Shown here in pieces: positions 11,820-38,369 of a stretch of DNA of 64,000 bases. Both the position numbers and the translations under genes were made by a program. How positions within the stretch are numbered: position 1 is the first letter of the stretch; every line of letters begins with the position of its first letter. A model generated the notes under the pieces. The model searched no databases, was not told the origin of the DNA, and saw only the letters and a program-made list of their open reading frames with translations. The stretch covers positions 1,632,001 to 1,696,000 of the forward strand of contig CAVVUN010000015.1 in the NCBI GenBank assembly GCA_963751455.1, given 5' to 3'. This DNA is from Nitrospirota bacterium (GTDB taxonomy: Bacteria; Nitrospirota; UBA9217).

Positions 11820-13295
11820 CTATCCCGGTTCATCGAGCTTCCCGAACGCCTTCAGCACCACTTCGGACAAGGCCGGATGTATATGCATGCCCTTTGCGAC
11901 CGCCCAAAGGTTGTTCTCGCCGGCCATAGCATTCACGACCTCCTGGATCAGTATCGACGCCTGGGGGCCGATAATGTGATAGCCCAGGATCTTCCCGCTC
12001 TTCCGGTGCACGACGGCTTTCGTAAAGCCCTCGGTCTCCATCATTGCTTGTCCGCGGGCAACGTCGCTGTACAGGGCTTTTCCAACCAGGATTTCTTTCT
12101 TCCCCATCAATTTGACGGCCTGCTCTTCTGTCAGTCCGACGGACGCGATCTCCGGATAGGAAAAAACAGCGTGCGGAACGGTCACGTAATTCAGCCGGGA
12201 CTTTTTTCCATGGACGACGTTGTGCCAGACCAGTTCAGCCTCGCGGTTGGCCGTATGCCGGAACATTTTCTTGCCGATGGCGTCGCCGAATGCCCAGATG
12301 TCCTTCTTCGATGTTTCGAAGTATTCGTCGACATGGATATAGCCCCGTTCGTCGGTTTTCACTCCTGTGTTTTCAACGCGCAAAAGATCGGCGTTTGATC
12401 TTCTGCCGGCGGCCACCAGGAGATGGCGGGCGCTTAGTTCGAGTTGCTTTCCGTCCCGCTTCCGGGCGCTGACAATCAGGTTTTTCCCCTCAGTGCGGAC
12501 CTCCACGGCTTCGGTATTAGAATGGACGGACATTCGGCGGGAAAGAGCGGTTTCAAGAAGTTTCGAGACTTCGGGCTCCTCATCGGGCACCAGCCGCGCA
12601 TTGCGCTGCAGGATCGTGACCTTTGTGCCTACAGCCTCGAAGAAGTGGGCAAATTCGGCAGCGATGTAGCCCCCGCCGATGATGATCATGCTGTCCGGCC
12701 GTTCCCGGAGTTCGAGGGCGCTTTCGTTCGTGAGGTACTTCACGGCCTCAATCCCTTTCACTGCGGGGATCGCCGGGCGGGCTCCGCTCGCTATCACGAT
12801 GGTCTTGCCTTTAATGGCGACGGGGTTAACGCCGTTAAAGATTCTCTCTTTATTTTCGGACGGCTTTTCGGCAGATCGCGATGTATTGATGCGCTCGTAC
12901 GATTGGTGCGCATCTTTAACCGGGTGAACTTCGAGCGTATAATCCCCGCTAAAATGAGCTTCACCGAGATAAAAATCGAAGTCATCGGCGTCCTGTAAAG
13001 AGCGTTCAATGTGATCACGGCTCGCTGTGACTTCACTCCTCATGCGTTCCATGATCGCTGCAAAATCTATCTCTTGGATTTCGGCGGTAATGCCGAATTT
13101 TTTAGCTTCGCGTATTTCAACGATTCTATCCGCCGGATAGACCAATAGTTTTGTTGGGATTCAGCCGACGTTGAGGCAGGTGCCTCCCAGCGGTCCCTTG
13201 TCCACAAGGGCCGCGGTTTTCCCATGCGCGAGAGCATCTTCGATTAGGCTTGCACCGCTGCCGCTGCCGATTATGATGACATCGTATTCTTTCAT
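11820..13295 (-). CDS. Class I pyridine nucleotide-disulfide oxidoreductase (dihydrolipoamide dehydrogenase/mycothione reductase-like), probable selenoprotein
   Basis: ATG at 13295 gives MKEYDVIIIGSGSG...GGTCLNVG-TGA(13163-13161)-IPTK, in frame with ORF 11820..13145; also GGGYIAAE, GD and HPALSE motifs. Confidence 0.88.
13126..13142 (-). promoter_or_regulatory. Candidate bacterial SECIS hairpin
   Basis: Minus-strand tctatcc-ggc-ggataga, a 7 bp perfect stem with a G-containing loop about 19 nt 3' of the in-frame TGA. Confidence 0.6.
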
Positions 13296-36347: not shown

Positions 36348-36917
36348 ATGTCATTTCTTACTGTCCTCTTCATTTCCTTCGGGTTGATCTTCATTGCCGA
36401 ACTTGGCGACAAGACGCAGCTTATGGTCTTTACGCTTGCGCTCCGGTTCGGCGGAAAGCCGGTGCTCGCAGGTGCTTTTCTCGCATTTGCCCTGCTGTCC
36501 GGCAGCGCGGCCATCATCGGCAAGGGGCTTGGCGGACTCTTTTCTCAGGAACTGATTACCGGCATATCAGCCTGGATATTCATTCTTTTCGGAACATACA
36601 TACTGTTTGCCTCAAAAGAAGAAAGCGGGCAGGAACAGACAAAACCGTCGACAGGGGCAGGCGTGGTCGCAGCATTCAGCCTGATCGCCATTTCCGAAAT
36701 GGGAGACAAAACCCAGATAGCGACTCTTCTTCTGTCGGTAAAATACAGGACCTTTTTTTCCGTGTTTCTAGGCAGCCTTGCAGCACTGACCCTCTCCTCC
36801 CTGATCGGCATCCTGCTTGCCGGCAGGCTCAATAAATATATCCCCGCCAAAGTGGTCGCTCCTGCAGCAGGCATCCTGTTTATTCTGCTTGGCATCGGCA
36901 CGATCATATTTGCCTGA
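36348..36917 (+). CDS. TMEM165/GDT1 (UPF0016) family cation transporter
   Basis: Two E(L/M)GDKTQ motifs and multiple transmembrane segments. Confidence 0.92.
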   Translation: MSFLTVLFISFGLIFIAELGDKTQLMVFTLALRFGGKPVLAGAFLAFALLSGSAAIIGKGLGGLFSQELITGISAWIFILFGTYILFASKEESGQEQTKPSTGAGVVAAFSLIAISEMGDKTQIATLLLSVKYRTFFSVFLGSLAALTLSSLIGILLAGRLNKYIPAKVVAPAAGILFILLGIGTIIFA

Positions 36918-37015
36918 AAATCCCCTCAAAAACCCATAGGTCTATGTTTTTTATTGACAATATTGTGCGCTTGCACTAAAATTAAACAATCGTTTTATAA
37001 TACAGGAGGTTCGAT

Positions 37016-37438
37016 TTGTCGACCAGAGCGAAATTATTTACAGTATTGTTCAGTATCCTTTTCCCTTTGGCAGCGCTGGCCCAGGCGCAATTTCCGCTTA
37101 TCGGCGCAGATGATGTAAAAGTCCACTTAAAGGGAAAGCGGGCGGTTTTGATCGATACCAGGAATCCTGATGAATATCGTTCAGGGCATATACCGGGTGC
37201 CATCAATATCCCGGCGGAGCAGGTGAAACTGCAGGCGAGTCGTCTTCCAAAAGACAAGTCCGTTCCGCTAATTTTTTACTGCAGGGGGGCCGGCTGATCG
37301 CTCAGCAGTATGGCCGCAGGGGCGGCCACAGAGCTGGGATATAAGAAACTGATGATTTACCAGGCAGGTATGCCGGACTGGTTGATGAAGGGCTACCCGG
37401 TGATAAAAGGCGGTCAACCGGGAAAATTCAACAACTAA
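37016..37438 (+). CDS. Secreted rhodanese-domain protein, probable selenoprotein
   Basis: IDTR..EY..GHIPGA, IFYCRGAG-TGA(37295-37297)-SLS...LGY....Y..G..DW...GYPV; the domain is completed only by TGA readthrough. Confidence 0.85.
37311..37328 (+). promoter_or_regulatory. Candidate bacterial SECIS hairpin
   Basis: tggccgc-aggg-gcggcca, 13 nt after the in-frame TGA. Confidence 0.65.
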
Positions 37439-37470
37439 TCCTTACCCGGACAAGCCGGATCAAATCTTTG

Positions 37471-37567
37471 AACCGCAAAGGCGCAAAGGTCGCGAAGGAC
37501 ATCTAAAGATTGTTTGATTTAAAATCAAGGCCAGGATTTTCTTTGCGTTCTTCGCGTTTTCGCGGTA
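37471..37567. repeat. Inverted 9-mer CGCAAAG-type array
   Basis: accgcaaaggcgcaaaggtcgcgaag ... ctttgcgttcttcgcgttttcgcggt. Confidence 0.75.
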
Positions 37568-37580
37568 AAAATTTTGTTTT

Positions 37581-38369
37581 ATGATGAAGAGAGAAAAGAC
37601 AAATTATACAATCCAAGCCGTGTCTCATGCCTTCGATATTCTTGAGTCGTTCACAAAGACCGACCACGAACTCGGCGTTACCGAGCTGTCCAAGCGGCTG
37701 GGACTGCATAAGAACAACGTATTCCGGCTTCTTGCCACGCTTGAACACCGCGGTTATATAGAGCAGAACAAGGCGACCGAAAGCTACCGGCTGGGTCCGA
37801 AGACGCTCCAAATCGGCGTAATATTCATCGAACAGCGCGAATGCCGGCGCCAGGCGCGCCCTATCCTCGAGAACCTTGCGGCTGCCTGCGGAGAAACCGC
37901 CGTAGTCGGTGTTCTCCGCGCCGGCCAGGTAGTCTTCATGGATGGTGTGGAGACCCAAAGAACCGTGCGCGTTGCCTCCCGAATAGGACAAATCCTTCCG
38001 GCGCACTGTACAGCTGTGGGCAAGGTTCAGCTCGCAATGCTTGCTCCTGCCGATATCGAACAGCTTTATACTGAAACGAAGCTTACGGTACTGACCGAAA
38101 AGAGCATCAAAACCCGGGAACTGCTCCTGACGGAACTGAAAGCAATCGCCGAGAAAGGATATGCTCTCGAGAACGAAGAGTGCGACGCCGAGGTCAGGAG
38201 TATTGCCGTTCCGGTCAGGGATTTCTCGAAAAAAGTAATTGCCGCCCTGGCCATCACAGCGCCGGCTGTCAGGCTTACGGACGAGCATCTCGACAAGGCC
38301 GGCATAACTAAGCTTCTCATTGAAGCAGGCCGCAGCCTGTCGCAAAAACTGGGACACTCGTGTCAGTAA
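37581..38369 (+). CDS. IclR family transcriptional regulator
   Basis: HTH LGVTELS..LGLHK..VFRLL.TL; PAHCTAVGK; SIAVPV. Confidence 0.95.
   Translation: MMKREKTNYTIQAVSHAFDILESFTKTDHELGVTELSKRLGLHKNNVFRLLATLEHRGYIEQNKATESYRLGPKTLQIGVIFIEQRECRRQARPILENLAAACGETAVVGVLRAGQVVFMDGVETQRTVRVASRIGQILPAHCTAVGKVQLAMLAPADIEQLYTETKLTVLTEKSIKTRELLLTELKAIAEKGYALENEECDAEVRSIAVPVRDFSKKVIAALAITAPAVRLTDEHLDKAGITKLLIEAGRSLSQKLGHSCQ

Follow-up and report, generated by a model that had tools for sequence, protein, structure and literature searches.

A predicted stand-alone rhodanese selenoprotein with a C-x4-U active-site loop in Nitrospirota

Rhodaneses carry sulfane sulfur as a persulfide on a catalytic cysteine, of which the Sud protein has a single one. 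Among the rhodanese selenoproteins, form 1 is said to be owed to Zhang and Gladyshev, 2005. Five rhodanese selenoprotein forms are listed in a 2026 catalogue (PMC13188914), in whose Table 1 form 1 is given as PF00581 with the motif UxxS and the Geobacter sulfurreducens protein WP_010941598.1 as representative, and the loop of this representative reads FYCGGVT-U-VLS in supplement file 3 of deep-Sep. Sud is a small periplasmic rhodanese carrying polysulfide sulfur in Wolinella succinogenes (PMC3397948). A rhodanese gene located in a 64,000-nt stretch of a Nitrospirota genome, G000 (the whole stretch is called the window), was compared with these systems. The original prediction, made from the letters of the window, implied that its C-x4-U loop was new, which did not hold, as the form 1 representative already has this loop and shares the Sec column, U-x-x-S and a signal-peptide-like N-terminus as well. 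The two differ in build: the representative exceeds 400 aa and is multi-domain, a feature that the catalogue does not name as a defining one, whereas the protein here has 140 aa, one domain and its own gene context.

The gene starts with a TTG codon, and its table-11 ORF ends after YCRGAG at a TGA, yielding a product of 93 aa; past this TGA, 46 codons stay open in the same frame up to a TAA at 37436–37438, with the coordinates just as originally claimed. The TGA lies five codons past the canonical Cys, and the loop U-S-L-S fits U-x-x-S. A canonical rhodanese C-terminus had been noticed past the TGA, and the read-through product indeed gave a full match to Pfam Rhodanese (PF00581), spanning residues 31–124 and profile positions 2–101 of 102, with 69.9 bits versus a gathering score of 22.2, the catalytic Cys in place and a rhodanese fold. 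The AlphaFold model of the 140-aa product (pLDDT 76.5) has a strand at 85–89 and helices at 95–106 and 3–21, and its top Foldseek matches are rhodaneses. Judged by the domain match and the model, a stop at residue 93 would truncate the domain directly past the catalytic loop. The features of the locus and of related genes are collected in Table 1.

Table 1. Features of the rhodanese locus (window positions) and related genes elsewhere in the genome
Feature	Position	Strand	Basis or remark
Complete gene, signal peptide plus one rhodanese domain, 140 aa if TGA is Sec	37016..37438	+	translation, Pfam, model
Sigma-70-type promoter-like site TTGACA-17-TAAAAT, 11/12	36954..36982	+	sequence; orthologous upstream regions
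Palindrome TAAACA-NN-(T/C)GTTTTAA directly 3′ of the −10 box	36983..36998	+	63/73 orthologous upstream regions, ≤3 mismatches
Ribosome-binding site AGGAGG, 6 nt 5′ of the TTG start	37004..37009	+	sequence
Predicted general-secretion-pathway signal peptide, residues 1–24	37016..37087	+	heuristic; helix 3–21 in model
Cys89 (TGC), canonical rhodanese catalytic position	37280..37282	+	invariant in orthologue alignment; matches active-site Cys of solved rhodaneses
In-frame TGA, predicted Sec94 (C-x4-U, U-x-x-S)	37295..37297	+	TGA/Cys column in orthologues
Bacterial SECIS-type hairpin, 7-bp upper stem 37311–37328	37301..37338	+	folding, orthologue contrast
IclR-family regulator, downstream neighbour	37581..38369	+	profile match; conserved order
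Multi-domain C-x4-U paralogue, 468 aa	G000:C15:451652-453058 (L173:3153-4559)	-	signal peptide, CxxCH, three rhodanese domains
NF040886 multiheme genes	G000:C15:1355435-1356709, C7:6495-7718, C1:52374-53594		each with one TGA

A rival reading takes the TGA as a real stop of a truncated gene or pseudogene, as an assembly error, or as a Trp or Gly codon of a changed code, and databases do annotate the short products, of 93–100 residues and some of them named hydroxyacylglutathione hydrolase, while a Trp stands at the Sec column of two database proteins (P0011 and P0410, both known as proteins only). Of these, P0410 falls into one 90% cluster together with stumps of 94 residues, which makes it likely that a gene caller had translated TGA as Trp. 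An alternative genetic code was rejected, because TGA is a normal stop in this genome, where 570 of the 1454 long open stretches end with it. Four public DNA runs, and no RNA run, were listed with a small share of the sequence, and contigs of two of these, both of one study, kept the TGA as well: one contig, a piece of 151 nt, matches the window letter for letter, and the other, of 544 nt, aligned over 37115–37647 with 37 other letters differing. Its presence in these contigs excludes a sequencing slip, and sequencing error was rejected. With the 46 codons past the TGA conserved, the domain cut directly past its catalytic loop by such a stop, and a column that switches with Cys codons only (see below), all these versions of an ordinary TGA are extremely improbable.

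Comparison among homologues supplied the main evidence for selenocysteine. Close orthologues were found in 23 relatives, drawn from 61 genomes searched, with TGA at the Sec column in 22 and TGC in one, and the frame of every TGA form stays open for 38–58 codons past the TGA. Pooling gave 133 loci, namely 78 distinct ones with the motif, 22 duplicates and 33 without the pattern, the last being more distant proteins with Cys at the Sec column. Across the 78 distinct loci the column holds TGA in 58, TGC in 13, TGT in 7 and other codons in none, though the ratio of 58:20 does not reflect how often TGA and Cys occur naturally, because one metagenome search pattern selected Cys forms. An alignment for Cys or TGA at this column had been proposed as a check, with a non-Cys residue counting against Sec, and all 78 DNA loci have Cys or TGA. 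Among the 120 database protein matches listed, 110 are short and each of these ends four residues past the Cys, and the ten long proteins have Cys at the column in eight cases, Trp in one and no motif in one. For 56 TGA forms, amino-acid identity is 63% past the TGA (37 codons) versus 59% before it, with the changes past the TGA mainly at third positions. In a quick tree with SH-aLRT and the Sec column masked, in which many forks are open, the stand-alone C-x4-U rhodanese forms its own clade, and a 68-row group (SH-aLRT 96) comprises 49 Sec rows with 19 Cys rows nested inside. This nesting suggests that Sec may be ancestral and that the Cys forms would be reversions.

A perfect GC hairpin, tggccgc-aggg-gcggcca, had been described 13 nt past the TGA and was found there as stated. 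Its AGGG loop of 4 nt lies 20 nt past the UGA with a G in loop position 2, and together with the lower stem it reaches a folding energy of −24.1 kcal/mol (z −4.62), none of 200 dinucleotide shuffles being as stable. The consensus bacterial SECIS has a loop of 3–9 nt, an upper stem of 4–16 bp, a G in the first two loop positions, a spacing of 16–37 nt and an MFE ≤ −7.5 (PMC13188914), and a search of the SECIS type, as originally proposed, placed the hairpin within all these ranges (4-nt loop, 7 bp, 20 nt, −24.1 kcal/mol). A scan of 36850–37600 against Rfam gave no match up to E 1. When synonymous codons were resampled with the protein kept, 67 of 2000 sequences folded as well as the native hairpin, so the Ala-Ala-Gly-Ala-Ala peptide accounts for part of the stability; since the encoded peptide favours hairpins, the window alone is modest evidence, and the orthologue comparison is the stronger test. 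In that comparison, whose rows are related and not independent, the two synonymous stem-closing bases are Watson–Crick paired in 54 of 58 TGA forms versus 3 of 20 Cys forms, G stands at loop position 2 in 58/58 versus 6/20, and the z-score against synonymous resampling averages −1.29 versus +0.18. With G fixed in the loop, Sec forms are limited at one residue to Gly, Val or Ala.

The presence of selABCD had been named as a further check, lack of the machinery being the outcome that would speak against Sec, and selA, selB, selD and tRNA-Sec (anticodon TCA) were all found in the genome above family cut-offs, with selA adjoining selB and selD having its own in-frame TGA. There are two tRNA-Sec genes (G000:C1:369631-369725 and C13:3951-4041), and the second may not belong to the organism, as its contig measures 9 kb and contamination of the assembly is put at 5.4%. 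Separately, dsrA (C2:327037-328180) and selD (C2:129959-130880) each match in two pieces, likely reflecting frameshift errors of the assembly. A selA match was present in 26 of the 30 TGA-form genomes checked; of those without it, G006 has selD and tRNA-Sec, G074 has selD, and G017 is 63% complete. In a genome that is 86% complete, G019, none of selA, selB, selD and tRNA-Sec was found, which is most simply accounted for by missing contigs; the same genome has two TGA-bearing genes (L025 and L189) with intact hairpins. As selA is retained in seven of the eight genomes with a Cys form, the Cys forms did not arise from loss of the machinery. Taken together, the in-frame UGA, the conserved SECIS-type hairpin and the Sec machinery make a 140-residue selenoprotein very likely, in agreement with the Sec-containing product originally proposed, and by these comparisons the UGA is almost certainly read through as Sec in the cell.

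The protein is also very probably exported to the periplasm, as predicted from its N-terminus. By a signal-peptide heuristic, a hydrophobic stretch was detected in 71 and an AxA-like end in 66 of 73 orthologues, with a lipobox or a twin-arginine (Tat) motif in 0 of 73 each. The signal peptide itself, earlier read as ending ALA-QA, was upheld by the heuristic, with the cleavage site moved: A24-Q25 is invariant in the orthologue alignment, which favours a cut behind AQA (residue 24) over one behind ALA. The predicted mature protein is a stand-alone domain of 116 residues.

Regarding the position that Sec occupies, the C-x4-C rhodaneses, such as Bacillus halodurans BH2092 (PDB 3NHV and 3O3W), are structural matches with the same long loop and two cysteines; they have Cys where Sec stands here, and identity is about 22–25%. 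The C-x4-C loop occurs in 96 of the 150 best representatives, and by alignment the predicted Sec94 is a replacement of the second Cys of this common loop class. The active-site loop is two residues longer than that of classical C-x-x-G-x-R-S rhodaneses, and substrate analogies are therefore loose. Sud (PDB 1QXN), the periplasmic polysulfide-sulfur transferase at rank 49 of the Foldseek matches with 21% identity, serves as the nearest works-like model, with no orthology claimed; it is a dimer by its PDB title and not a selenoprotein.

We consider the 140-residue, predicted exported selenoprotein likely to be a periplasmic sulfane-sulfur carrier or transferase, and for its sulfur-transfer chemistry and role, reasoned from analogy with other rhodaneses, the balance tips slightly in favour of the following scheme. 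Cys89 would accept sulfur from polysulfide or thiosulfate to form a persulfide; Sec94, placed where the helix capping the active-site loop begins, would attack this persulfide, whereby sulfide would be released or the sulfur handed on; and the resulting Cys–Sec bond would be re-reduced in the periplasm. No enzyme data for C-x4-U rhodaneses were found in the literature searched. A plausible partner is the NF040886 periplasmic polysulfide reductase family (MccSep/ExtKL-type), of which three multiheme genes were found in the genome, as were YeeE-type transporters and genes resembling dsrAB. In Geobacter, the NF040886 member reduces polysulfide in the periplasm and, less efficiently, selenite; the authors of that work leave room for additional periplasmic sulfur-transfer components (PMC13510729). 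The rhodanese gene and the NF040886 genes are not neighbours. NF040886 was detected in 26 of 36 same-family genomes versus 2 of 24 other Nitrospirota searched; within the family it was present in 20 of 24 genomes with the rhodanese gene versus 6 of 12 without (Fisher p 0.053, the kin not being independent), and this weak co-occurrence was not taken as support. That an uncatalogued, stand-alone C-x4-U subfamily would be a periplasmic polysulfide carrier feeding an MccSep-type enzyme, with Sec as the resolving residue in an all-selenium sulfur respiration of uncultured Nitrospirota, is put forward as a speculative and rather unlikely extension.

The same selenoprotein might instead have selenium as its cargo, binding or reducing periplasmic selenite or selenide for uptake or detoxification. 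ExtH, a rhodanese-like lipoprotein, is linked to selenite uptake by the title of a paper, and the lesser selenite reduction by the multiheme selenoenzyme (PMC13510729) points the same way; the rhodanese gene, however, adjoins neither sel genes nor a porin, Cys forms persist in the seven of eight genomes that keep selA, C-x4-C rhodaneses are common, and a Sec residue is in itself no evidence for a selenium substrate, so that we regard selenium cargo as improbable. That both loop positions are always Cys or Sec would also suit a general dithiol redox centre or metalloid site engaged in thiol–disulfide exchange or in arsenic or metal handling, for which the Cdc25-type enzymes, sharing the rhodanese fold, and TsoB, in which a U-x4-U rhodanese and a DsbD-like part are fused, offer parallels. 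This is an unlikely function here, given that no conserved arsenic or metal genes lie nearby and that rhodaneses of the sulfurtransferase type are its closest matches in structure and sequence.

Named relatives are mostly Nitrospirota metagenome-assembled genomes, and in a 121-genome sample of the phylum all matches with E < 1e-45 fell within the window's family, two weaker TGA-bearing matches occurring in other families. The neighbouring genes rph, GDT1, IclR, larE and purD form no sulfur operon. The order of rhodanese then IclR was seen in at least 22 of 30 loci, with larE and purD next, and as no plus-strand terminator-like site was found between the two genes, they are likely in one transcript as judged from the DNA. 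Of the 63 orthologous upstream regions with the palindrome, 59 also have a TTGAC[AT] element 22–34 nt 5′ of it, and the palindrome is a candidate operator, perhaps of the downstream IclR. Promoter and palindrome conserved 5′ of the pair, and the conserved order itself, would fit a small module in which the rhodanese senses for, or feeds, the IclR regulator from the periplasm. Such a module is very unlikely all the same: no membrane partner bridges periplasm and cytoplasm, several family genomes are without the rhodanese, the distant TGA forms L085 and L086 are without an adjacent IclR, and a genome scan with the palindrome matrix (28 sites ≥14 bits, genes beside 10 of them examined) yielded no clear regulon. 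In one genome the Sec gene is immediately preceded by a tandem rhodanese paralogue that lacks the catalytic Cys (L027/L064, L064:1556-1930; P0121), and one locus whose record is titled Betaproteobacteria (L072) has the gene order of the Nitrospirota loci and is possibly mislabelled.

A second Sec candidate resides in the window at 11820–13295 on the minus strand, a flavoprotein disulfide reductase with TGA at 13163–13161, the position of the second Cys of its C-x4-C redox motif. It comes near NF004947 (575.6 bits versus a cut-off of 592). Among 19 readable loci of the 20 fetched, the codon is TGA in 10 and TGC in 9, and the 10 TGA forms have one invariant hairpin sequence, present in TGA forms only, so the candidate looks real from these alignments. 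It is absent from Table 1 of the catalogue (PMC13188914) and was not found by term search in the parts of the deep-Sep supplements covered, and it is likely more novel than the rhodanese selenoprotein. The original prediction had remarked that both window candidates share C-x4-U spacing; the second one does exist, but a shared meaning was rejected, since the folds are unrelated and C-x4-C is the flavoprotein family's own motif, which makes the shared spacing a coincidence.

Coming back to the known rhodanese selenoproteins, the rhodanese was held against each catalogued form. TsoB (NF045694, the rhodanese/DsbD fusion-like form 5, UxxxxU) is the best NCBIfam match over the rhodanese part (residues 24–130) and shares the five-residue spacing, but scores only 64.8 bits versus a cut-off of 805 and has U-x4-U with the DsbD-like part, whereas the protein here has Cys at the first position and no such part. 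Rhodanese_LYCAU (NF041203, form 3, CxU) is likewise a rhodanese selenoprotein with one domain, small, of the exported type and similar in length; its Sec, however, lies two residues past the Cys, not five, and the score was 49.2 bits versus a cut-off of 115, with the motif C-x4-U and not C-x-U. Forms 2 and 4 (UxxG), in which Sec replaces the catalytic Cys, do not apply, Cys89 being encoded by TGC. A form-2-type gene was noted elsewhere in the genome (G000:C2:598663-598947, plus strand; L059), with TGA at the catalytic position and fused to a further domain, and in L082 and L089 a form-2-type rhodanese closely precedes the C-x4-U gene. For form 1, a PF00581 domain was found with one Sec in U-x-x-S, five residues past the Cys, without the multi-domain build, and the relatives all stop after 38–58 codons.

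That build is found in the genome's own multi-domain paralogue, which has C-x4-U and a hairpin in its first rhodanese domain and matches form 1; 42 of 107 positions of this domain are identical to the single-domain rhodanese, with Cys aligned on Cys and Sec on Sec. Further C-x4-U sequences in the deep-Sep supplements (covering 15 of 15 'rhodan' places in file 1 and 2 of 5 in file 3) are all longer proteins with more domains. Within the scope of the catalogue and these supplement parts, no single-domain C-x4-U entry was found; the term CxxxxU is absent from the part of the catalogue covered, and the main texts of BSepDB and deep-Sep make no mention of rhodanese.

The analysis corrects a systematic mis-annotation, 110 of the 120 database homologues listed being stumps cut at the UGA. 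The orthologue set provides a clean natural test of SECIS constraints, and having close Sec and Cys orthologues, the family is well suited to studying what the second loop residue does; if it is indeed a polysulfide carrier, the Sec/Cys pairs that it offers in nature would be the smallest model of Sec at a non-canonical rhodanese position. No new kind of system is revealed, the C-x4-U loop being already catalogued in larger rhodanese selenoproteins, and what the predicted selenoprotein family gains is a small single-domain member, mainly in one Nitrospirota family. As WP_010941598.1 has the same loop and Sec column, the rhodanese described here is therefore placed as a stand-alone, single-domain member of form 1.
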